Shown: positions 18,595 through 33,256, counted from the first letter of the stretch. The stretch is DNA of 64,000 bases from Candidatus Eremiobacteria bacterium (GCA_963737065.1 CAVTRC010000001.1:640001-704000); one strand, 5' to 3'. The notes: generated from the letters alone by a model not told the origin. Translations and numbers: made by a program.

Positions 18595-18756
18595 CGTACT
18601 TCCCTCATATGATTGCGCTGCTCTGCGCGAACGCTTCGCGATTGCGCTCGGTGACGCGTGATAGGTACCATGCCGGGGTTTTGCTCGTGGCGCGTAACAC
18701 GTCAACGGCTCCCGCGAAAGTCACCTGTGTAAAGAGTCCGTAAACTATTAGGACCA

Positions 18757-18830
18757 GAGGCCCAAAGCACCCGCAAGTTCGCGGTGCGGCGACCCGATGC
18801 TCTACGTATTAGGAGTCGGGTTTGGGCTTC
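18757..18830 (+). ncRNA. Candidate structured RNA (three-way junction), probable 5' leader of a small ORF
   Basis: P1 GAGGCCCAAA/TTTGGGCTTC, P2 GCACCCGC/GCGGTGC, P3 CCCGA/TCGGG with an inner stem; TAAACT -10-like box at 18741-18746. Confidence 0.35.
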
Positions 18831-18859
18831 AGCGTAAACCCATATGAGGAGACAACGGA

Positions 18860-19012
18860 ATGCAAGACGCCCCTGACGACATGTGCGTTATCGAAGAATG
18901 GATGCTCGAACTCCTTGAAGACGATCGTCCGATCGAGTATGCCTTCAGGCCGAAACAGGTCAGCGACGGATTACATTGGATGTATCGCGCGTCGCTCATC
19001 CGGCACAACTAA
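18860..19012 (+). CDS. Small 50-aa protein MQDAPDDMCVIEEWMLELLEDDRPIEYAFRPKQVSDGLHWMYRASLIRHN (absent from ORF track)
   Basis: GAGGAG RBS at 18846-18851, 8 nt before ATG 18860; TAA 19010-19012; translated by hand. Confidence 0.55.
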   Translation: MQDAPDDMCVIEEWMLELLEDDRPIEYAFRPKQVSDGLHWMYRASLIRHN

Positions 19013-19230
19013 CGGCGTTATGCGGTGACGGCGTTGGGGTCGCTATCAATTATGTTGAGTGCGACTCTCACGATCGCGTGATTTTATAGGTGGCGTAAAG
19101 GAAGCGATAACTTGCGGTTAGTCGCCGCCTCGCAAGCGACCGCCTGTGATATTGTAAGACCCGTTCAAGCGTTGGCGCTCTGATTGTTTTTAGAGCGCGG
19201 CGCACGTTCTTGCGTTAAAAAGGGGGCGCC

Positions 19231-19713
19231 ATGTATTGGTACTGCCGGGCATTTCTTTTGTCTTTTTTTGCAATCGTCGGCACGACGGCGGCGATGGCGG
19301 CCGCACCGAACGTCACGCTGCGGCTCGACGCCGCACTCGTTCACGTCGTAAACGGCAAGGTGACGACATCGGCTGTCGATCGTCCGCTCAAGGCCGGTGA
19401 CGTGATCGAATATCGCATCGTTGCGCGTAATGCCGGCAATGCCTCGGCGTTGGCGTTTTCGCCCCTAGGGAAAGTTCCCGCGCATACCGAGTTTTTGCAA
19501 AATGAAGGCGCGAGTCGCGCGGCGCGCGCTTCATATACGCTCGATGGAACGCATTGGTCGGAACATCCCATGGTCCGTGCAGTGAAATCGTCGGGACACG
19601 TCGTTATGGAACCGGCGCCGCGCTCGCTCTATCGCGCGGTGCGATGGACGCTCTCGGGCGCGCTCGTGCCGTCGCAAACGGCGACGTTCGCGTATGAAGT
19701 GCGCGTGCAATGA
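19231..19713 (+). CDS. Secreted single DUF11-like Ig domain protein (candidate chaperone or cap of a fibre system)
   Basis: Signal peptide; LKAGDVIEYRIVARNAG, VPAHTEF, SYTLDG, VRWTL...LVPSQTATFAYEVRVQ. Confidence 0.8.
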   Translation: MYWYCRAFLLSFFAIVGTTAAMAAAPNVTLRLDAALVHVVNGKVTTSAVDRPLKAGDVIEYRIVARNAGNASALAFSPLGKVPAHTEFLQNEGASRAARASYTLDGTHWSEHPMVRAVKSSGHVVMEPAPRSLYRAVRWTLSGALVPSQTATFAYEVRVQ

Positions 19714-22187
19714 AACTCCACCGGTCTCTTGCGGCGGCGGGCGCGTTTGCGCTCGCCGTTCAACTCACGTCGCCGCTCACGGTTAATGCCGCGAACGGCC
19801 ACGACGACCCCGGAACGCAGGTGACGAACACCGCGAACGCAGTCTATAAAGACGCCGGCGGAAACTCGTACACCACCACCTCCAATACGGTAACGGTGAC
19901 GGTGCAAAACGCGCCGACTCTAACGAATACGCCGGGCACCGGTTCCCCGTATGCGCCGGGACAGGTCGTAACCGACACGTTCGTGCTCACGAACACCGGT
20001 AACGGCGCGGGCACGTTCCAAGTCTCCGATACGTCATCCGCGCCTACGGCGAGCTCCGATGCGGTGCTCGGCGGAAGCGATGCGGCAGCGGCGACGCTCG
20101 GCAACGGCGCGGCGACGTGCACGACACCCGCCGGCTCGCAATCGGCGCCGTGCAAATACGCGGCGACGGTCGGCGGCACGACATACTATTTCACGAGCCT
20201 CAATGGAACGAGCGACAACAACTCGCTCGACTATTGGCTACTCCACACGAATCCGGCGACCGCCGCAGGTTCGTCGATCACCGTCTCCGTGTACTACGCG
20301 CTCGCGACGAGTGCTTCGACGCCCGCGACGGTAACATCGAGCATCTACGCATCGGTGGCGTATCCTGCCGCAGGCAGTGCGCCTGCTACGACGTCGTCCT
20401 CTGTCAACGCAACGGAGTCGAATACCGTTACCGCGGACGCGCGCCTCGACTTGTACAAGGCGAGCAGTCAGAATCCGGCGACCGGCGACATCACGTACAC
20501 GGTCTCTGCGCACAACGGAGGCGCGTTTGCCGCGAAGGATCTGCAATCGGTGAAAGCGCTGCTCGGCAGTGCGACTGCGGGCGTGCTGATCTCCGACAAG
20601 GTTCCGCAGTTCGGTGGGTCGCCGCTTTCGCTCAGCAATTCGGGCACGGTCACCGTTACGCCGAACGCGACGTATGGATTTGCGACCGGCGCGACGGCCG
20701 ACCTGTATTACTCGACGTCGGCAACCGGTACGACTAGCTGGACGAAAGCGACAGGAAATCTTCCGACGGACGGCAGCGTAACCTACGTTGCAATCTTCAT
20801 TCACGGTGGGACCTGCACGAGCGCCGGATACGAGCTGTGCGCGGACACCGGTCATGCGACGACGCCCGGTAACAGCAACGTTGCCTCCGCTGCGGCGATT
20901 GCGTTCTCGTTCACGGTCGTTCAGCCGAGTGGGCCCGGATCGGCCAACGCGAACGCAGTCAAAAACCTCGCGAACGGTGTCATCGGCGACAACCAGTCGA
21001 CGGAGCACATACTCGGACCGGGCATTCCGGGCGGAACGGCCGATACGCCATCGGCGACGCCCATCACAACGAGCGGTCAAGGCATAAACAACACCACGAA
21101 CACCTCGACGAACGGCGCGTCCAATCAGATCGGAAATCAAGCCCTTGCGTCGTACGCGCCGCAAAACGGTCCGTTCGGACAACCGGCCGCCGTTGGGTCG
21201 TATGACGGCGTCGTCGGATCGAATGGATCCAACGATTTCACAGCGTTTCCTTTCGGTCTCGCGGGCGATAGCGTCGTTAATACGAGTACGACGGTGGGAT
21301 CACCGGTAACCGCGGCAACGCTGGGCTCCGCGCAAACGATCTGCGTCGCGCATACGCTCAAAAACAACGGGAATCACGACGACTCGTTCAACATCGTCGC
21401 CACCGTTCCAACGGCATACCAGGTTCCGTCGACCAGCGGTGGAACTGCGGTCGCCGGCTGGAAGACCGGCGTTTATTCCGATGCGGCGTGCAGCGCCGCG
21501 CTCGGCGGATCGACCGACGGATCGCCGGCGGCGACCGCATCGAACGTTGCGATCGCCTCGGGCAACTCGCTCAACTATTACGTGAAATACGTCATTCCAG
21601 CGGGAGTGAAGTACTTCTACCGCTTTGACGCTTCGATCGTTGCGACCAGTGTCGGCAGCGGTTCGCAAAGCGACTCGACGCACGATGAACTTTACTCGGG
21701 ATTCGTCGCGCTCACGAAATCGCAGAATGTCACGAGCAACGGTTGCCCTTCGGGTGTGTCGCCGTCGTATGCAGCCGGCACCGTCTGTCCGACCGGCGTG
21801 ATCGCCTACACGGTCGACTATCGCAACCTCGTGATGGGCACGAGCAGCACCAACATCTCGTTCAACGCGTGCACGACGCAAGCGGGATCGTTGCAGATAA
21901 CGGATGACGGCACGCTCTCGACATCCAGCTCGACGACCACCGTCGCCAATTGGGCATCGTTTGCATCAATGACGGCCGCTCCGTCGGACTCGAGCGCCTC
22001 GTCGTCGTTCACGTACGCCACCGGCGTTCCCGCGGCCGGCGCAAGCCCGACGTGGAGTGCGGCGGCGACGAAGTTTGTCGACACGGTCGGTGGCTCGTCG
22101 TTCCAACTCGTTCCAAAAAACTACAGCGGTCCGTCGGCAACGCAAGGCAATCAGGGGACGGTGACGTTCTCCATCGCGGTGAAGTAA
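19710..22187 (+). CDS. Secreted Ser/Thr/Gly-rich multi-Ig DUF11-type protein (candidate major fibre subunit)
   Basis: Signal peptide; N-terminal PGTQVTNTANAVY...SNTVTVTV; internal LDLYK...ISDKVP...VKNLAN; C-terminal ALTKSQ...GVIAYTVDYRN...GTVTFSIAVK; ATGA overlap. Confidence 0.8.
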   Translation: MKLHRSLAAAGAFALAVQLTSPLTVNAANGHDDPGTQVTNTANAVYKDAGGNSYTTTSNTVTVTVQNAPTLTNTPGTGSPYAPGQVVTDTFVLTNTGNGAGTFQVSDTSSAPTASSDAVLGGSDAAAATLGNGAATCTTPAGSQSAPCKYAATVGGTTYYFTSLNGTSDNNSLDYWLLHTNPATAAGSSITVSVYYALATSASTPATVTSSIYASVAYPAAGSAPATTSSSVNATESNTVTADARLDLYKASSQNPATGDITYTVSAHNGGAFAAKDLQSVKALLGSATAGVLISDKVPQFGGSPLSLSNSGTVTVTPNATYGFATGATADLYYSTSATGTTSWTKATGNLPTDGSVTYVAIFIHGGTCTSAGYELCADTGHATTPGNSNVASAAAIAFSFTVVQPSGPGSANANAVKNLANGVIGDNQSTEHILGPGIPGGTADTPSATPITTSGQGINNTTNTSTNGASNQIGNQALASYAPQNGPFGQPAAVGSYDGVVGSNGSNDFTAFPFGLAGDSVVNTSTTVGSPVTAATLGSAQTICVAHTLKNNGNHDDSFNIVATVPTAYQVPSTSGGTAVAGWKTGVYSDAACSAALGGSTDGSPAATASNVAIASGNSLNYYVKYVIPAGVKYFYRFDASIVATSVGSGSQSDSTHDELYSGFVALTKSQNVTSNGCPSGVSPSYAAGTVCPTGVIAYTVDYRNLVMGTSSTNISFNACTTQAGSLQITDDGTLSTSSSTTTVANWASFASMTAAPSDSSASSSFTYATGVPAAGASPTWSAAATKFVDTVGGSSFQLVPKNYSGPSATQGNQGTVTFSIAVK

Positions 22188-22191
22188 CGAC

Positions 22192-24297
22192 GTGAACCGC
22201 TTCGGTTGGATCGCGGCGATCGTGCTGTGCGCTCTTGCAGCACAGCACGTCGCCGCGTCCCCGACCGGCGGAACGAGCATCGTGAACGAAGCGTCCGCAA
22301 CGTATAGCGATGTCTTCTCGCACGCCTATCAGACCACTTCCAATGCGATCGTCTCGCAAGTCGTGAGCCTCTCGTCGCTCGTCGTCTCGCCGAAACAAAA
22401 TGCGGCGGCACCGGCGTCGGATACGGTTGCGGTGAACGCATCCGCCACGCGCGTCTTCACGATCACCAACACATCGAACATCACCGACGCGTATCGCATC
22501 ACGAGTCTCCAGACGGGGCCACTCGGCGTTACGTCGATTGCATGGATCACACCGCCGGGATCGCTCGCCACGGCGGTCAACGGGAGTGCATCGCCCCAGA
22601 TCGGGCCCGGTTCATCGATCTCCGTTCGCGTGACGCTTTCTACGAGCGGACTCAACGTCGGCCAGTCGGTTCCGATCGCGCTCACCGCGCAGACGACGGT
22701 GACGCAGACCGGAAACGGTCTCGCGCACGATAGCGGTATGGAATGGGTGATCGGTGCGACGGGCCCGCACTTTTCGGGGCCGGCCGGTGCAAACACCACC
22801 GTCCTGAAGACCGTAAATAATGCGAGGCAGGTACAGACCCAACCGGGCGCAACCGTGACATTTCACATTGCTGCACTCAATAGCGGCGGCGCCGCGGCGA
22901 CGAACGTGCAGATCAGCGATCCGGTACCGGCGGGGTTGCGGGTTGATCTGTCATCGGCAGAGTTGAACGGTCAACCCGCGGGCGCGCAAGCGTCACTGAG
23001 CGGAAACACAATCGTGTTTCGCGTTCCGTCGATCGGCGCCCAGCAAAGCGTCGATGCGACGTTCAACGCGATCCTTCCGCCGGGAGAATCGCTCGGCGAG
23101 TCCTTCGTGAACGTCGCGACGACAGCCGCAGACGGCATTCCCGCAACCGCAACGACTCCCGCCGATGTTTTTTCTGGTTCATCGAACATCGTCTTCGATG
23201 GTTTTGCGGGTGCTGGACATCCGATCGCCGGCGCGGTTATCGCGCTGCTCGATGCGAACGGGAAACCGGTCGGAATCAACGCGCCGAATCCGTCGGTTAC
23301 CGGACCGGACGGCAAGTACGCGCTCCCGCTTTCAGTTCAACTGATTCCCGCAGCGGGCGCGCATTTTACGCTGACGATTTCGGCACCGTCGTATCTAAAC
23401 CGGCGCATCACCCTGGTGATTACGCCCACCGCGAACGGGTTCTACAACGTCTCCGAAACATCGGCTGACGCGCAACCGATCGCGGCGGCCGGCGGCTTCA
23501 CCCTCACGATGAACAACGTTCATCTTCAAGACGTCTTCGGGCTGTTCGGCAACCTGCCGCTCTTCGCGCTCAGAACGATCTCCGTCACGAAGACGTCCGA
23601 CAAACAAGCGGCGTCTGCGGGGGACCGGGTGATCTTCACACTCGGTCTGCAAAATCAAACGACGTTTGGAATCGCGAACGTTCGTGTCGTCGATACGATG
23701 CAAGCCGGATTTGCGTATCTGAACGGAACGGCGAGAGTTGACGGGCTTCCACTCGAACCGCTGGTATCTGGACGCACGCTTTCGTGGGTCTTTTCATCGA
23801 TTGCACCGGCGCAGATGCACACGATCACCTATGGCGCAACGATCGTGCCCGGCGTTGCTGCGGGAAGTACCCTTGCGAACAGCGTTTCGGTGAACGGCAG
23901 CGCGGCGATCGGCGGCGTGAATACCGGCGCTTCCGCAAGTACGAGCGTGATGGTCATCGACGGCGTGCTTTCCATGCGCCGCGTCGTGACCGGTAGAGTA
24001 TTCTTCGACGACGCGCATCGCGGTTATTTCGTGCGCGGCGACCGCGCGATCTCCAGCGTTCGCGTCGTCCTTGAAGACGGTTCGTTCGCGATCACCGATT
24101 CCGGCGGCGCGTTTTCGTTTCCGTCCGTTCGCCCCGGATTGCATGTCGTGCGAATCGATCCGCTGACGTTGCCGGCGTCCGCGCGCGCACAGAGTGATGC
24201 GCCGATGAATTCCAGTCGCTCGTACGAGCAGCTATTGCACGGCGTGCTCGACGACGGAACGATGGAAGACGTCGAATTTGCGGTGGCACCGCGATGA
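22192..24297 (+). CDS. Secreted protein with two DUF11 domains and a C-terminal SdrD-B/carboxypeptidase-regulatory-like domain (candidate base subunit)
   Basis: GTSIVNEASATY; VLKTV...QISDPVPAGL...FVNVA; VTKTSDK...VVDTM...LANSV; GRVFFDD...LEDGSFAITDSGGAFSF..VRPGLHVVRID. Confidence 0.8.
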   Translation: MNRFGWIAAIVLCALAAQHVAASPTGGTSIVNEASATYSDVFSHAYQTTSNAIVSQVVSLSSLVVSPKQNAAAPASDTVAVNASATRVFTITNTSNITDAYRITSLQTGPLGVTSIAWITPPGSLATAVNGSASPQIGPGSSISVRVTLSTSGLNVGQSVPIALTAQTTVTQTGNGLAHDSGMEWVIGATGPHFSGPAGANTTVLKTVNNARQVQTQPGATVTFHIAALNSGGAAATNVQISDPVPAGLRVDLSSAELNGQPAGAQASLSGNTIVFRVPSIGAQQSVDATFNAILPPGESLGESFVNVATTAADGIPATATTPADVFSGSSNIVFDGFAGAGHPIAGAVIALLDANGKPVGINAPNPSVTGPDGKYALPLSVQLIPAAGAHFTLTISAPSYLNRRITLVITPTANGFYNVSETSADAQPIAAAGGFTLTMNNVHLQDVFGLFGNLPLFALRTISVTKTSDKQAASAGDRVIFTLGLQNQTTFGIANVRVVDTMQAGFAYLNGTARVDGLPLEPLVSGRTLSWVFSSIAPAQMHTITYGATIVPGVAAGSTLANSVSVNGSAAIGGVNTGASASTSVMVIDGVLSMRRVVTGRVFFDDAHRGYFVRGDRAISSVRVVLEDGSFAITDSGGAFSFPSVRPGLHVVRIDPLTLPASARAQSDAPMNSSRSYEQLLHGVLDDGTMEDVEFAVAPR

Positions 24298-27200
24298 AGC
24301 GGTTGGGAAGAGCGTTGCAGTGTGCGGGCGCCGCGCTTATGGTCGCGTCGTTTATGACGTCGATGACGACCCGCGTTTCCGATGCCGATACGGCGGCCGG
24401 CGCGGCGACGGCAACGTTCGTCGCGCCGAACCCGGGCAGCGCTGCGCCGATCGGCGCAACCAACGTCATCATCTCGACCCAACTCGGCAGTTCGATCGAG
24501 TTGCTCGACGACGGCGAACTCGTCGACGGAAAGCACCTCGGTAAGCGAACGTTCAACAAATCGACCGGCGAGGCGCAATGGTTTTTCTACGGCGTCACAT
24601 TGCACCCGGGACCGAACGAACTCGTCGCGACCGCGCTCCGCGCGCCCGGGTTACGTGGAACGCCGGCGACATTGACCGTCTATGGACCCGGTGACGCGCA
24701 GACAATTCGCGCGGAGTTCGGATCGCATTTACGTGCCGATGGAAAAACGATCGCTCCGCTCAATATTACGGTCAGCGACCGGTACGGCAATGCTGCGGCG
24801 CCCGCGCAACGTGTGGACGTGCGAATTTTGCGCGGAAACGTAACCTTCGGCGATCTGCCGAAAGACGGTACGAACGCCGCACCGGCGTCGCCGGACGTTC
24901 TCACTTCGCCCGCGCCGCAGGGCGCGCTTTCCGCGCAAGTGCCGCTTCCCGTCGGTGGATATCTGTCGCTTCCCGTCGTGTCGGGAACGCTCGCCGGCGC
25001 ATTCGACATCGAGGTACGCGTCGGCAACGCGTATCTTCGGCGTTCGTTCTACGTCGAGCCATACGTTCGCCCCGCATTCGTTACGGGGCTTGCGTCGGTC
25101 GGCGTCGGCGCCGTCCCGGGTGACGTCGACGGCGACGGTATCGAAGACGGCGGCGGAGCGCGCCGCGAGCGCGCAGCGATTTTCGCAACGGGAGCCGTTG
25201 GACGCACGCTCGTGACCGCCGGCTACGAATCGCAAAACCGTCTGTCGCCCGTTTCGTCTCTCGGTGCGCCGGTCGATTCGCCCAATAGCCGTCCGTATTT
25301 GACGTACGGCGACAGCTCGACGATCGCACAGCCGTATCGCTCGCAAGATCACTTCTACGCGCGCGTGGATCGCGGAAGGTCGAGCGCATTGTGGGGGCAG
25401 TACGTTGCGGACGTCGGGCCACCGGACGTGGGCGGATATCAGCAGCTCTTGAACGGCGCGAAGGTCGATGTGTCGCTCGGTGCGAGCGGACGCGCGCGTG
25501 TAACCGCGTTTACCGCGCGCAATCAGCAAGCGTTCATTTCGACGATTCTTCCGTTGACGGGACTCGCCACGCTTTCCGCACCGCTTCACCCCGACATCGT
25601 CGTCGGCTCGGATCTGCTGCAGTTGGTGACGCTCGACCGCGCGACGGGTTTGATGATTCGAGAGACACCACTCTTGCGAAACGTCGACTACACAATCGAT
25701 TACGCGACGGGCATCCTGCGTTTCATCAACGTACCGCTACCGTACGACCCGCAGTTCAATCCGCAAGTCGTCTCGCTGCAATACGAATACCAGGGGCCGG
25801 GCGTCGCATCACAGACGACCGGTGCGCAGGTCAGCTACGCGCTTTCCCTCGACGGCCGCACGACGGCCCGTGCAGGTTACGTCAACGACGCAACCGGAAC
25901 GCAAAATTTCGCGCTCGTCACACAATCGCTAGCGCGGACATGGGCGAACGGATCGTTTACCGTTTCTCATGCTTCCAGCGCCGGGTTCGTTCCGAGCGCC
26001 GGAAGCTCGACGCAACTGGGCGCGGCGACCGTGGTGCCGCATAACGGCGAAGCGATCTCCGTCGCGCTCGATGAACGGAATGCCACGAATGCCGTTGCGC
26101 TCGGATATCAGTCGACTAGCGCGGGTTATAACGATCCGTTCGGTGGATTCAGCTCGCCCGGAACGCGCGCATATCGTGCGATCTATTCACTCGGCACGGC
26201 GCGTGCCGGTCAACTGCAAATGAACCTCTCGGGTGAAAGTAACACCGGCATCGGAGCGGCAAGCAGCGAGCTCGACGGTGCGGTGACGTACCTGCGCGCC
26301 CTCACGTCCCGCTTGACGATGAGCGCGGGCGTTGCCGAGCATCGCCAAACGATCGGGGCGCAGCCGTCGGCGTCTCCCGCTGCGAACGTCGCATTAGCGA
26401 ATACGCAGCAGACGCAGGCGCAGGCATCCCTCACCTACCGCATGCCGGAGCGTCTCGGCATTTCGGTTTCGGAATCCGACACGCTGCGCGGCAGTGATGC
26501 GGGCTCAACGCAACCGTCTCAGACGCAACTCGAAGCGACGTACGACTTGCCAAAGCGCGGCCGTTTGTTCTTCCGCGAACTTTGGAGCGATCAACCGTCG
26601 GCGACGTTTGCGAATTCAACGGCAAATCTCAATATCGCGTCGGGCTCGACCCATTCGATGCAATTCGGGGTCGAACAGCCGCTCTCGGCGGCAACGACGG
26701 TTAGCTCGCAATACGTCATCGATCAAGTCGCGTCGGGCGTGAATATCTATGCCGCGGCAGGCATTGACGAACGCGTGCATCTCGGCAAAGCAATTGCCGG
26801 AAACTTGACGTTGCAATCGGCAAACGCAGTTGGCGCGGGAGCGGAGGGATTCACCGTTCTCGGTGCCGCGCTCACATACGCGCCGGCGAGCGGGAAGTTT
26901 CGCAGTTCGGTTTCGTATCAAGATCGAACGGGCGCGTCGTCCGGATCGACCGTTTCCGCGGCAATCGCAGGTCATATCAGCGACGCTCTCTCAGCGGTGG
27001 GCTTCATTCAACGCGCATACGGCAACGGGATCAACGCGATCGACGATCGGTTGTCGGTTGCGTATCGTCCGCGCGCCGACGATCGCCTCATCTCACTCTT
27101 CGATTACGAGCGAGGCAACGAGACCGGGCTCGCCGGTGAAGCGGCGAACGTCGCCTCGTTCGAAGAGTTGTTTCGCATGACGCAGACCTTTGAACTCGCC

Positions 27201-27527
27201 GGCCGGTTTGCATACAAATTCGACGGCGGCGGCGAGTACGCGGCGCGCACCGTGCTGTGGTTGGGACGCGCAACGCAGCATGTCGGCTCGCGCGGTGATG
27301 TCGCGCTCGAGGCGCGGACGGCCATCGTTCCGGGCGCGACCGGCGCACGCACGACCGCCGTCGCCGCCGAAGCCGGCGAGACCATTGGGCGCACGGCGCG
27401 CGCCGCGGTTGGTTACAACATCGCCGGAAGCGTCGATCCGTCGCTGCTCGGCGTCCCGCAACGCAAAGGCATCTACATAACCTTCACAACGCTGATCGAT
27501 CGTATCTTCGGGTGGGGAAAACCATGA
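24294..27527 (+). CDS. Large outer-membrane beta-barrel protein with periplasmic Ig-like domains (candidate secretion/assembly platform)
   Basis: Signal peptide; LRADGK...ITVSDRYGN Ig-like motif; YLTYGDSS; LLRNVDYTIDYATGILRF; several hundred aa of alternating Y/F/G-rich strands; ATGA overlaps at both ends. Confidence 0.75.
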   Translation: MKRLGRALQCAGAALMVASFMTSMTTRVSDADTAAGAATATFVAPNPGSAAPIGATNVIISTQLGSSIELLDDGELVDGKHLGKRTFNKSTGEAQWFFYGVTLHPGPNELVATALRAPGLRGTPATLTVYGPGDAQTIRAEFGSHLRADGKTIAPLNITVSDRYGNAAAPAQRVDVRILRGNVTFGDLPKDGTNAAPASPDVLTSPAPQGALSAQVPLPVGGYLSLPVVSGTLAGAFDIEVRVGNAYLRRSFYVEPYVRPAFVTGLASVGVGAVPGDVDGDGIEDGGGARRERAAIFATGAVGRTLVTAGYESQNRLSPVSSLGAPVDSPNSRPYLTYGDSSTIAQPYRSQDHFYARVDRGRSSALWGQYVADVGPPDVGGYQQLLNGAKVDVSLGASGRARVTAFTARNQQAFISTILPLTGLATLSAPLHPDIVVGSDLLQLVTLDRATGLMIRETPLLRNVDYTIDYATGILRFINVPLPYDPQFNPQVVSLQYEYQGPGVASQTTGAQVSYALSLDGRTTARAGYVNDATGTQNFALVTQSLARTWANGSFTVSHASSAGFVPSAGSSTQLGAATVVPHNGEAISVALDERNATNAVALGYQSTSAGYNDPFGGFSSPGTRAYRAIYSLGTARAGQLQMNLSGESNTGIGAASSELDGAVTYLRALTSRLTMSAGVAEHRQTIGAQPSASPAANVALANTQQTQAQASLTYRMPERLGISVSESDTLRGSDAGSTQPSQTQLEATYDLPKRGRLFFRELWSDQPSATFANSTANLNIASGSTHSMQFGVEQPLSAATTVSSQYVIDQVASGVNIYAAAGIDERVHLGKAIAGNLTLQSANAVGAGAEGFTVLGAALTYAPASGKFRSSVSYQDRTGASSGSTVSAAIAGHISDALSAVGFIQRAYGNGINAIDDRLSVAYRPRADDRLISLFDYERGNETGLAGEAANVASFEELFRMTQTFELAGRFAYKFDGGGEYAARTVLWLGRATQHVGSRGDVALEARTAIVPGATGARTTAVAAEAGETIGRTARAAVGYNIAGSVDPSLLGVPQRKGIYITFTTLIDRIFGWGKP

Positions 27528-29050
27528 CGCGGCTATTGATGCGTCTCGTGGTCGCGGCGGCGTTCGCGATCGTGACGTGCGCGTTTGCGAGCGCCTCGAC
27601 GATCATGGTCTTGAGCGACAGCGCGGGCGTCTATTTGATCGATTCCGCGACCGGCAAAGTCGTTCAGTCGTACGGCAACCTCTTCTCCGGAAGCAGCGCG
27701 CAGGACGTCGCTGAAGACCTCAACGGCAACCTGTACGTGACCGATAGCTCCGGCAACCTCCGAAAGGCGACGTTCAACGCGAACGCCGGATCGTCGACCG
27801 GCGCGTATGCCGCGGCGACCGTCGTCGGCGCGATCCCCGGATATACTTCCGCGGTTGCGCGTCTTGCGTGGGATCCCACCACGTTGTATTGCGCGACCGG
27901 CTGCCTCGTGACGATGAACAGCAGCGGAAATTCGCTCGATTGGATCAATCCGGCGACGGCCGCCATCGTAAAAAGCGTCGCGGTGAGTCCGGCCATCTCG
28001 GGTGGCGGCGACCTTGTCATCGACCCCACTGCGGTGAACAACGCGGCCGTCTACGTCGTCTCCGGAAAAGCGTTTTACAGCGTCAATCCGTCGACGGGCG
28101 CGTCGACCTCGATCGCGACGTTTTCGTGGCCGGGGCTCACGGCGAATCTGACGGGACTTGCGCTCCTGGCGAACGGCGATCTGGTTGGATGCGAACAAAA
28201 AGGCAGCGGAACGGCCTGGACGCTTTGGGAATTCACGACCGCCGGAGCGCTCGTCACGAGCCAAACGGGCATTAGCACCGGAAGCGACGTGGTGAACGAC
28301 CTCGCTTCGGTTCCGGCGACGTTCACGACGTCGAAAACCGGCACCGCGAATGCGGGCCTCGGCGACACGATGATTTATACCGTCACATTGAAGAACACGA
28401 GTTACTTCACCGTGCCGACGGCCGCGATGACCGACCCATATCCTTCGACGATCAGCGTTTTATCGTCGCCGGCGCCGTCGTGCAGTGTTTCCGGCGGCGG
28501 CAGTTGCACCGCGACGCTGAACCCGAGCGCAAGCCCTTCGCCCGACGTTGTCGCAAGCGTTACGAACTTGGCCGCCGGCGCAACCGCCACGATGACGTTC
28601 GAAGGTTCACCGAGCGCGAGTGCGAGCGGGACCGTCTCGAACACGGCAAACTCGAGCGTTCCGTTCGATCCCAACGAGTACGGCGGCTCGACCGCTGCAA
28701 CGAACACCATCAACACAACGATCACGGCGTCCGAATTTGCGAAACAGGTAGCAAACATCACGGAGGGCCTTGCGCCGGGCACGAGCTTGATCGGCAAACC
28801 GGGTGATGTCGTGGAATACACCCTGACGTTCACGAACCGCCGCGGCTTTTCGCTGGCGTCCTTTCAAATCAACGACCCGGTGCCGACGGGAACGACGTAC
28901 GTCGCAAACAGCGCAACGTGCATAAGTCAGCCCGCGGGGCTCACCTGCGCGCCGTCGCAGTCAGGCGGCGTCGTGTCGTTTGTTTACACCGGCACGAGCT
29001 TGGCCGCCAACGGCGTCGTCAGCGCAAAGTTCCGCGTAACGATCAACTAA
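27524..29050 (+). CDS. Secreted beta-propeller + two DUF11 domain protein (candidate tip adhesin)
   Basis: Repeated blades (LIDSATG, DLNGNLYV, INPATA, VNPSTGA); TTSKTG...MTDPYP...VSNTA; FAKQV...PGDVVEYTLTFTN...INDPVPTGTTYV...AKFRVTIN. Confidence 0.8.
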   Translation: MTRLLMRLVVAAAFAIVTCAFASASTIMVLSDSAGVYLIDSATGKVVQSYGNLFSGSSAQDVAEDLNGNLYVTDSSGNLRKATFNANAGSSTGAYAAATVVGAIPGYTSAVARLAWDPTTLYCATGCLVTMNSSGNSLDWINPATAAIVKSVAVSPAISGGGDLVIDPTAVNNAAVYVVSGKAFYSVNPSTGASTSIATFSWPGLTANLTGLALLANGDLVGCEQKGSGTAWTLWEFTTAGALVTSQTGISTGSDVVNDLASVPATFTTSKTGTANAGLGDTMIYTVTLKNTSYFTVPTAAMTDPYPSTISVLSSPAPSCSVSGGGSCTATLNPSASPSPDVVASVTNLAAGATATMTFEGSPSASASGTVSNTANSSVPFDPNEYGGSTAATNTINTTITASEFAKQVANITEGLAPGTSLIGKPGDVVEYTLTFTNRRGFSLASFQINDPVPTGTTYVANSATCISQPAGLTCAPSQSGGVVSFVYTGTSLAANGVVSAKFRVTIN

Positions 29051-31182: not shown

Positions 31183-31608
31183 GTGCCAGATCAATCCGGA
31201 CGCGGCCTTCCGCCGCGGATCTACGTTCCGATCGTCGCAGTCCTCGCCATCGCTTTCCTCGGCGTAATGTTTTACCTCGTCGCGGTCGGTTTCGGTGTAA
31301 CGGGTTCAGTCTTCGGCAACGCAGCGCCGAATGGAACGCAAGCTCAGGCGCCGTCTTCGGGAACGAACGTGCAAGGTGGTGGACCGCCGCCCGCGGTGAT
31401 GCTACAGGTCCAGACGCTCAAAGCACGCGTCGCCGCACATCCAAAAGACGACGTCGCGTTGACGCAGCTCGGCGATCTCTATCTCGCGGCGAACAAGTTC
31501 CAACAAGCGATTCCGCTCTACCGGCGTGCGCTCGATGCGAACCCGCGAAACGTTGCCGCGCAGACCGGGCTCGCGCAAGCGCAAGAGGACCTTCGTCAAT
31601 CGCAATGA
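31183..31608 (+). CDS. Membrane-anchored tetratricopeptide repeat protein
   Basis: N-terminal TM; PKDDVALTQLGDLYL...AIPLYRRALDANP.N..A..GLA. Confidence 0.8.
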   Translation: MPDQSGRGLPPRIYVPIVAVLAIAFLGVMFYLVAVGFGVTGSVFGNAAPNGTQAQAPSSGTNVQGGGPPPAVMLQVQTLKARVAAHPKDDVALTQLGDLYLAANKFQQAIPLYRRALDANPRNVAAQTGLAQAQEDLRQSQ

Positions 31609-32435
31609 GGCTCTACATTAGCGCCGACATGGAAGGTACGGCCGGCGTCTGTTCCTGGGCGCAGGTCGATCCGTGCAACGTCCACGAGTATCCCGTGTAC
31701 CGCCGGTATATGAGCCGCGAAGTCGCCGCCGCGATCGCCGGCGCGCGCGAATCGCAGCCGTGCGACGTGACGATCAACGACTCGCACTGGGATATGCGAA
31801 ATCTCGTGTGGGACGAGTTGCCGGAGGACGTTCGCGTCATCTCCGGACGCAAACCGCTCTCGATGGCGCACGGCGCGCAAGATCGGTTTGATGCTGCATT
31901 CTTCACCGGATACCACAGCGCAGCCGGTACAGCCGGCTCCGTGCTCGCGCATACATATTCGAACGAAGTGATGTATAACGTCTACGTTAACGGAAAGGCG
32001 TGCACCGAAGCTTTGCTCAACGCCGCGCTTCTCGGCGTGCACGGCACGCCCGTAGCAATGGTCACCGGCGACCGCGCGCTCGTCGAAACGACGCTTGCCG
32101 ATCTGCCGTGGGCGACGGGCGTGATCGTGAAAGAGTCGATCGGATACTACGCCGCAAACTCGCTCACGCCGCAAGCAGCCTGCGATGCAATTCGTTCGGG
32201 TGCGCGCGAAGCGATTCAATCCGCGTCGCGCGCGAAACCATTCACGTTTGAGCCGCCGGTCGAGCTCGTGATCGAGACGGCCGGCGTCGAACACGCCGAC
32301 TTCATCGAGTTGCTTCCGCGTTTCGAACGCACCGGGGGACGCAGCGTAAGATTCGCAAGCGACGATTATGCAACGGCGTTCAACGCCTTTCTCGTTGCGA
32401 TGCGTCTCGGTGGCGCGGCCAATCTACCGGCATGA
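31605..32435 (+). CDS. M55 family D-aminopeptidase (DppA-like), paralog 1
   Basis: YISADMEG, INDSH, FFTGYH, LAHTY, E..LNA, GD. Confidence 0.92.
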   Translation: MRLYISADMEGTAGVCSWAQVDPCNVHEYPVYRRYMSREVAAAIAGARESQPCDVTINDSHWDMRNLVWDELPEDVRVISGRKPLSMAHGAQDRFDAAFFTGYHSAAGTAGSVLAHTYSNEVMYNVYVNGKACTEALLNAALLGVHGTPVAMVTGDRALVETTLADLPWATGVIVKESIGYYAANSLTPQAACDAIRSGAREAIQSASRAKPFTFEPPVELVIETAGVEHADFIELLPRFERTGGRSVRFASDDYATAFNAFLVAMRLGGAANLPA

Positions 32436-33256
32436 AACTGTACATTTCGAGCGACATGGAAGGCGTTGCGGGCGTAACCGCGTGGCAGCAAGTCGATGCC
32501 CGTACGCCGCACCCCGAGTATCACATGTACAAGCAGCACTACACACGCGAGGTTGCAGCGGCGGTGCGCGGCGCGCAACGCAGCGGCGCGTCCGACGTGA
32601 CGATCAACGATTCGCATGGTCCGATGCGAAACTTCGTCTTCGAAGAATTGCCCCGCGACGTTCGCGTCATCTTCGGAAACCGCAAACCATACTCGATGGT
32701 GCAAGATTGCGACGGCGGATACGCAGGCGCGTTCTTCATCGGCTATCACGGCGGCATCGGTGACGCCGACGCCGTCCTCTGCCATACGTACACGCCGTCG
32801 GTCATCTACGAGACGCGGCTCAATGGCATGATATGCAGTGAAGCAACGCTGAACGCGGCGGTCCTCGGGTATCACGGCGTCCCGTTGCTCTACGTCACGG
32901 GCGACCGCACGACCGTTGACGGCGTGCAACGGCAGATGCCCTGGGTGCGCGGCACGATCGTGAAAGAGTCCATCGGCAACTTTGGCGCGAATACGATGTC
33001 GCCCGCTGCAGCCCAGCGTGCGATCGAAGAGGCCGCGGCTGCGGCCTTTGCCGCACGCGCCGACGCCGAACCATTCATCATCGAATCGCCGATCGCGCTC
33101 GAAATTACGCTCGCAAAAGTGGAGCAGGCGGATTATGTCGCAATGATCCCCGGATTTGACCGAACCGGTCCGCGCGCGGTTCGCTTTGTCGATGAAGACA
33201 TGCTGACGATTTTCAAAGCGTTCGTCGCGGTCTTCCGGCTCGGCATGATCGCATAA
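32432..33256 (+). CDS. M55 family D-aminopeptidase (DppA-like), paralog 2
   Basis: YISSDMEG, INDSHG, FFIGYHG, LCHTY, SEATLNA. Confidence 0.92.
   Translation: MKLYISSDMEGVAGVTAWQQVDARTPHPEYHMYKQHYTREVAAAVRGAQRSGASDVTINDSHGPMRNFVFEELPRDVRVIFGNRKPYSMVQDCDGGYAGAFFIGYHGGIGDADAVLCHTYTPSVIYETRLNGMICSEATLNAAVLGYHGVPLLYVTGDRTTVDGVQRQMPWVRGTIVKESIGNFGANTMSPAAAQRAIEEAAAAAFAARADAEPFIIESPIALEITLAKVEQADYVAMIPGFDRTGPRAVRFVDEDMLTIFKAFVAVFRLGMIA

Follow-up and report, generated by a model that had tools for sequence, protein, structure and literature searches.

The locus analysed here raises the question of whether five adjacent genes of a Candidatus Eremiobacteria genome (GCA_963737065.1, CAVTRC010000001.1:640001-704000, a 64,000-nucleotide stretch referred to below as the window) encode a fibre whose subunits complete each other's terminal domains and become locked by isopeptide bonds. 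An earlier note, made from the DNA alone, had proposed such a pilus, with DUF11-type subunits, donor strands and a dedicated outer-membrane (OM) barrel. The features concerned are listed below, the role names being those of the proposed model.

19231..19713, + strand: small secreted protein; a single truncated acceptor domain of CLIPPER type, in which Lys and the catalytic Asp are replaced, and a long conserved hairpin insertion.
19710..22187, + strand: putative shaft subunit; a leader and a donor hairpin precede three complete Ig-like domains and a truncated acceptor domain.
19809..19904, + strand: shaft donor hairpin, aa 34-65, with Asn40 (codon 19827-19829); two strands in the model, pLDDT about 73.
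21705..22184, + strand: shaft acceptor domain, aa 666-825, with Lys670 (21717-21719) and Asp732 (21903-21905), lacking the two Asn-bearing strands.
22192..24297, + strand: putative base/terminator subunit; a donor hairpin (Asn32) is followed by an Ig domain, two complete CLIPPER domains and a C-terminal SdrD_B-like module, no acceptor.
24294..27527, + strand: predicted outer-membrane protein; two N-terminal Ig domains (aa 34-256) and a predicted 38-stranded β-barrel (aa 262-1068).
27524..29050, + strand: putative tip subunit; β-propeller-like head, one complete CLIPPER domain and a truncated acceptor (Lys407, Asp451), no donor.

Operon layout and host

The five open reading frames (160, 825, 701, 1077 and 508 aa, in the order of the genes) are connected by three ATGA overlaps and one 4-nt gap, and each protein starts with a hydrophobic, Sec-type leader (read by eye). 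In these respects, as well as in the positions of N40, K670, N32 and K407, the earlier description was accurate. The frame of the last gene is already open from a GTG at 27512. Upstream of the operon, 525 nt of non-coding DNA (18706-19230) lie between divergent genes; no Rfam match was found in this stretch, and the promoter consensus did not rise above chance. Two tandem paralogues resembling M55 D-aminopeptidases (DppA-type) are encoded at 31605-33256, as recognised by eye from the translation.

The host is a two-membrane soil bacterium. Its genome is 95% complete and contains one Omp85/BamA gene, which indicates an outer membrane. Against PF01345 (DUF11; curated Pfam cut-off of 24.6 bits), the base (62.5 bits) and the tip (41 bits) scored over the cut-off and the small protein (16.7 bits) under it, while the Pfam search gave no family match for the shaft and barrel proteins. 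The base also matched the NCBIfam isopeptide-pilin model TIGR04226 (49.1 bits) and, weakly, PF17210.

The split terminal domain and its Lys-Asp-Asn triad

A 130-column profile was built from complete DUF11/CLIPPER domains inside the proteins of the fetched loci (149 rows), in which the triad occupies columns 7 (Lys, 144/149), 41 (Asp, 145/149) and 105 (Asn, 146/149). When all open reading frames of the loci were scored, 242 of the 244 C-terminal matches, defined as those ending within 6 aa of the stop codon, stopped at or before column 96, ahead of the Asn-bearing strands. The complete terminal domain expected of CLIPPER/DUF11 proteins is therefore missing. Internal matches extended beyond column 105 in 299 of 355 cases; this figure is in part circular, since the profile was made from domains of that kind, whereas the C-terminal figure is free of the problem. 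The missing part corresponds to two strands, and the shaft and base proteins begin with exactly those strands, following the pattern G-x-x-I-x-N-x-A, turn, S-N-x-V. The complementary division claimed in the earlier note was confirmed in the sequences, but the donor, described there as a single orphan strand, consists of two strands that form a hairpin (37-47 and 53-64 in the shaft model). In the solved CLIPPER domain (residues 708-828, triad K715, D748 and N806), 22 residues separate the Asn from the end of the domain, according to the accessible part of PMC12617251, which fits a two-strand donor. A donor profile taken solely from internal domains lacked power (3.5 bits for the base donor and none on the shaft); scoring therefore relied on a profile for which 16 donors served as seed, at a 12-bit threshold. 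Lys, Asp and Asn are found together in one domain of one chain in the internal domains of the base (K206/D243/N307 and K467/D501/N563), in that of the tip and in shaft domain 2 (K250/D296/N419, kept in 73, 76 and 67 of 85 aligned proteins, respectively).

The AlphaFold2 (AF2) model of the shaft has a mean pLDDT of 90.4, and structural alignments place its Ig-like domains at about 66-243, 244-480 and 482-666. CnaA-type pilin domains give the best matches (BcpA, Z 10.0, rmsd 2.8 over 129 residues; RrgB, Z 8.8), and the CLIPPER structure (PDB 9IFR) aligns to domain 1 with Z 8.3 and rmsd 3.1 over 117 residues. Packing of the N-terminal strands into their own first domain had been named as an outcome that would speak against the proposal; the alignments of the first domain with solved folds begin at residue 64-71, none of those listed starting before 64. 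Domain 1 is therefore whole without the donor and does not need it. At the other end, 84 of 85 aligned proteins terminate 5 or 7 residues past the Phe820 column. Of the acceptor residues proposed earlier, Lys670 and the ITDDG motif, Lys670 was retained, and the acid in the catalytic register could be narrowed to D732, the first Asp of the motif. Neither sequence nor structure searches of the PDB turned up a solved fibre or barrel of the family, a result that does not show a new fold.

The survey of homologous loci reproduced the proposed tip-(shaft)n-base logic in every role count. The tip is an acceptor-only protein, as had been claimed: its last domain covers profile columns 15-93 and ends one residue ahead of the stop, and donors were found in 0 of 30 Eremiobacterota tip proteins. 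Its head matches designed propellers (best E 1.1e-11), and tip heads vary widely among loci while the acceptor is retained. Eight Eremiobacterota loci (L040, L042, L049, L058, L062, L018, L032 and L037) are among those with two different acceptor-only tip genes, some of them upstream of the small gene, which suggests that the adhesin heads may be exchangeable. Most Sphingopyxis-like loci have two shafts, with no tip gene beside the barrel. The base is donor-only, again as proposed: C-terminal acceptors were absent from all 96 donor-bearing bases, and 95 of them carry the donor Asn motif. Among 124 long proteins with the SdrD_B-like module, 97 score as donors; the others score weakly, are truncated or are single-chain adhesins.

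The small protein, left unplaced in the earlier note, was found to be a truncated acceptor domain without Lys and Asp. Its match covers profile columns 7-93 and runs to residue 159 of the 160. The catalytic Asp position is occupied by Gly, and Asp was found there in only 7/42 Eremiobacterota and 2/61 sphingomonad-type homologues; Lys at the in-register position (register read by eye) was found in 0/42 and 0/61, respectively. A donor was detected in 0 of 111 small proteins. This acceptor cannot cross-link, and it would therefore suit a reversible guard of donors, or a cap where the tip is absent. From these sequence features, a donor-binding chaperone or cap is a candidate role, with the odds for it about even.

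Conservation of the triad was evaluated in alignment A1, which holds 85 of 89 matches (two partial sequences, one fused or frameshifted and one of 1437 aa were left out); four of the 85 rows are tips, leaving 81 Eremiobacterota shafts. Asn40 is kept in 81/81, Lys670 in 74/81 and an acid at position 732 in 76/81 (52 Asp and 24 Glu), and the full triad is present in 73/81. The remaining eight lack a triad residue, including three related shafts that have lost Lys and acid together and kept the donor Asn. In sphingomonad-type shafts, Asn, Lys and Asp are each present in 28/28. With a profile of these shafts, 2,347 cluster representatives were retrieved (E 1e-30 or better), giant adhesins being numerous among them; of the best 150 of the 2,347, 80 are pilins of 315-400 aa (representatives of 50% identity clusters), 73 with the full triad and 7 lacking a triad residue.

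Covariation was also studied. In coupling, calculated over 906 complete domains of 67 unrelated giant adhesins, the column pair Lys-Asp ranks 1, Asp-Asn 2 and Lys-Asn 13. These 906 domains also supplied the contacts that join the two final strands to the remainder of the domain, which were then transferred to 191 pilins (effective number 122). For the twelve strongest contacts outside the triad the mean z was 0.85 (permutation p 0.005), and two of them, both via Ala50, rank 1 and 4 among 3,638 donor-by-acceptor pairs; nine of the twelve have z below 1, and unrelated donor-by-domain-1 control pairs reach z values of up to 5.6. The covariation, weak overall, lends modest support to a donor-acceptor contact, and does not separate a contact between chains from one within a chain, or a long polymer from a short assembly. 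It is highly probable that the hairpins complement truncated domains of other subunits.

The outer-membrane barrel and the distribution of the system

The AF2 model of the barrel protein has a pLDDT of 79.4 (84 of 101 matches were aligned, alignment A2). Reading of its strand list gives 38 membrane strands, connected by linkers whose mean length is 15.8 aa behind odd-numbered strands and 3.9 aa behind even-numbered ones, the same alternation of long and short linkers as in outer-membrane barrels, with a 95-residue insertion after strand 7. The backbone diameter estimated by geometry is about 68-70 Å. Structural matches were to generic porins only, at rmsd 5-14, and the best Z scores (13.6-15.4) were obtained at rmsd above 10. 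The first predicted outer loop (25113-25160, aa about 274-290) carries a DxDGDG motif, typical of calcium-binding loops and largely retained in the A2 consensus. PMC9388160, in the text available, counts the 30-stranded SlpA among the largest barrels observed and states that three Deinococcus radiodurans proteins are predicted 38-stranded barrels. These three may belong to the same barrel family, noted there with no function.

The claim that the barrel is dedicated to the fibre genes was strengthened by natural fusions: base and barrel form one chain in P0185, P0186, P0189, L064, L067 and sphingomonad-type loci, and the fused chain begins with a donor. One Nitrospirota protein carries an OmpA-type wall-binding domain between base and barrel. 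The N-terminus of an outer-membrane barrel is normally periplasmic, and a fused base would therefore have to reach the surface through the pore. The barrel is a likely exit and anchor of the proposed fibre.

Related barrels also adjoin single large adhesins without a split domain, a two-gene variant composed of a giant DUF11 adhesin and a related barrel (L051, L054, L068, L074, L075 and L076); the presence of the barrel thus does not imply a polymer. These adhesins end in the same SdrD_B-like module as the base, which suggests that this module may be what the barrel recognises. A comparable architecture has been described for the solved CLIPPER adhesin of Acinetobacter silvestris (B9T28_05395), which may belong to this variant.

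Within the sample of 201 Eremiobacterota genomes, the barrel is present in 44 and the small gene in 36, all of them among the 44; in three genomes of the same genus, both barrel and small gene were absent. The same gene set was found in D. ficus, D. radiodurans (base in pieces), T. thermophilus HB8 (all five genes intact on pTT27, TTH_RS10905-10925), T. brockianus, Synechococcus NIES-970, Kovacikia, Pacificitalea, Novosphingobium and Acinetobacter haemolyticus (shaft in pieces). The range spans Eremiobacterota, Deinococcus, Thermus, cyanobacteria and Proteobacteria, with frequent base-barrel fusion. Some loci first labelled as other phyla were excluded from the other-phyla count because their genomes also occur in the own-phylum sample. 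A literature search with Thermus and Deinococcus locus tags returned table mentions only (PMC5382914, available part). The gene system is real and widespread.

Assembly model, known systems and alternatives

The reading preferred here is a covalently locked fibre of tip, shaft and base subunits, which the barrel would export and hold, a reading to which a probability of about three in four is given; the fibre, the bond and the transport are inferred. All subunits would pass the inner membrane by Sec, and the N-terminal hairpin of a shaft would enter the truncated C-terminal domain of the subunit before it, two chains together restoring one CLIPPER/DUF11 domain. The acceptor Lys and Asp would then meet the donor Asn, and a Lys-Asn isopeptide bond could form spontaneously, with no need for a sortase. 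The order would be tip adhesin (acceptor only), shafts (donor and acceptor) and base (donor only). The base would end growth and stay bound or fused to the dedicated 38-strand barrel, tethering the fibre, and the barrel, with about 69 Å from the geometry, would be wide enough for folded Ig domains. The small protein, as a non-cross-linking acceptor, would most likely shield donor hairpins until assembly or cap a free one.

The closest relatives in fold are CLIPPER/DUF11 domains (PF01345, PDB 9IFR, PMC12617251), which share the Lys-Asp-Asn triad and have complete copies in base and tip. Their isopeptide bond has been solved, but it lies within one chain, in stalks of single-chain adhesins, whereas the terminal domain of the operon is split over two proteins; neither split domains nor a barrel are described for CLIPPER in the accessible text. 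The earlier idea of donor strands combined with isopeptide bonds was supported as such, yet strand exchange with a spontaneous lock is already published for Clostridium perfringens BsaA and proposed for an archaeal thread. In BsaA's 'donor-strand exchange and lock', as far as PMC11580942 could be consulted, a donor Asn is joined to the Lys of the next subunit with the aid of an acid and without sortase, as shown by mutants; BsaA is, however, a TasA-family single-domain subunit of a Gram-positive organism, with a SipW peptidase and no barrel, in contrast to the multi-domain CLIPPER subunits and two-strand donor of the operon. Pfam and NCBIfam searches found no TasA-family or peptidase match in the five genes. 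The Sulfolobus acidocaldarius thread resembles the assembly proposed here in donor-strand complementation and in a proposed inter-subunit isopeptide bond, but the latter joins an Asn side chain to the N-terminal amine of subunit n+2, and the system is archaeal, with no barrel and no report of DUF11 in the part of PMC9715654 available.

Chaperone-usher pili (Fim, Pap) resemble the operon in their logic of tip adhesin, shaft and terminator, in the barrel encoded in the operon and in the N-terminal extension that completes the Ig fold of a neighbour, as sequence complementarity and weak covariation suggest it may do here. They differ in being non-covalent, with one donor strand, a 24-stranded usher and a PapD-type chaperone (PMC13721041, consulted in part), whereas the operon has 38 predicted strands, a base often fused to the barrel and an acceptor as candidate chaperone. 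In agreement with the earlier note, which recognised neither PapC/PapD nor sortase motifs, the genome gave no match to the usher family PF00577 (the E. coli positive control worked) or to the PapD-type chaperone family PF00345, which none of the five genes matches either, and the 95% complete genome gave none to sortase PF04203 (three positive controls worked). The subunits end on a β-strand, and a membrane anchor is absent. A divergent chaperone-usher-like cluster, missed by the Pfam usher and PapD models, lies 1.6 Mb away (G000:C1:2322620-2328822); judged by eye, it encodes a barrel-like protein of 1040 aa with SdrD-type repeats, a chaperone-like protein of 275 aa and three pilin-like proteins, and it adjoins a flagellin-like gene.

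Among giant single-chain barrels, the T9SS translocon SprA, with 36 strands, is able to pass folded proteins. It has about 2,300 residues versus about 1,080 in the barrel protein, and it is not among the listed sequence or structure matches of the latter, although absence from such lists excludes nothing. The SprA model TIGR04189 matched aa 457-480 weakly (E 0.032, 11.3 bits over 24 of 2319 positions, cut-off 200); this stretch (25662-25733) lies in the insertion after strand 7 and contains a conserved D-Y-x-I-D-Y, possibly a plug or a shared module. By these family searches the operon falls outside the chaperone-usher, sortase, TasA/BsaA and SprA families, with a subunit logic like that of chaperone-usher pili and a proposed chemistry like that of BsaA.

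Other candidates were set apart, the published ones according to the parts of the sources available. Anabaena HesF/Alr0267 was rejected as a homologue by description, being reported without a signal peptide, with TolC-dependent export and an opposite-strand neighbour (10.64898/2026.06.08.730779, PMC4390845). CryoSeek TLP-1 (single-domain protomer, n+4 donor; PMC11494351), the CPR Pam pili (PMC13278184), the Litorilinea GhlA hooks (one chain of 49 DUF11 domains; 10.1101/2025.08.19.671072, PMC13319060) and the Enterococcus Elr pili (10.64898/2026.10.17.759780) are other systems. A second DUF11 pair in the host genome is leaderless and unrelated. It consists of two tandem DUF11-repeat proteins of 1,080-1,130 aa (L001:8966-16062, G000:C1 about 1474900-1482100) that follow mreC/mreD/penicillin-binding-protein-like genes, and a shorter relative (G000:C1:220824-222299) follows an ExeA-like ATPase gene; all lack a leader, share a helical C-terminus and are apparently cytoplasmic.

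The alternative explanations differ in how much of the assembly they keep. A fibre with the same hairpin complementation could be non-covalent, as in chaperone-usher pili, the triad bonding slowly, rarely or never. This would accommodate the 8 of 81 shafts that lack a triad residue, among them the three without Lys and acid but with the donor Asn, and the SDS-stable oligomers that a BsaA mutant without the Asn still gave until heated (PMC11580942, part seen). However, Lys, acid and Asn, which sit at different ends of the chain, have been retained in five phyla, and loss of Lys and Asp is compatible with the fold, as the small protein demonstrates. Such a fibre is considered unlikely, and the covalent lock between subunits probable.

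Less likely still is a short modular adhesin, in which a tip, one or few spacers and a base rebuild, at the same barrel, the single giant chain of other species. Single-chain adhesins with the same SdrD_B-like end do adjoin related barrels, and the two different shafts of some loci could give a fixed order, but the window has one shaft gene with both donor and acceptor canonical, and base donors resemble shaft donors; nothing seen therefore prevents self-polymerisation. As for independent adhesins or envelope proteins, whose truncated domains would fold alone or with their own N-terminus beside an unrelated channel, complementation of a shaft by its own bent chain is compatible with the sequence statistics. 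Against this stand the tips without donor and the bases without acceptor, which need partners, as well as the three rigid domains between shaft donor and acceptor and the fusion of base to barrel in many taxa, and this explanation seems very improbable.

The covalently locked fibre is most likely a new pilus class. In the literature covered, outside of which most subscription papers fall, no description of split DUF11 pilins or of the five-gene operon was found; the chemistry has precedents, while the split domain, the barrel and the small acceptor are without precedent as far as searched. Somewhat more likely than not is a still broader proposal, that of a widespread, undescribed two-membrane pilus/secretion system, which would combine an enzyme-free, covalently locked tag-and-catcher polymer of split CLIPPER domains, a strand-accepting 'reverse chaperone' and a 38-stranded single-chain barrel, wider than any solved one known to us, that would also export single-chain giant adhesins, recognising them by the same C-terminal SdrD_B-like module.

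The genes of the system are currently annotated only as hypothetical or DUF11 proteins. If the model is correct, it would add a pilus class and a probable outer-membrane export route to Eremiobacterota, Deinococcus-Thermus, cyanobacteria and Proteobacteria, and it would give a function to an orphan family of giant barrels. In addition, the naturally split self-ligating domain pairs, with many sequence variants including thermophilic ones, are candidate tools for protein ligation.
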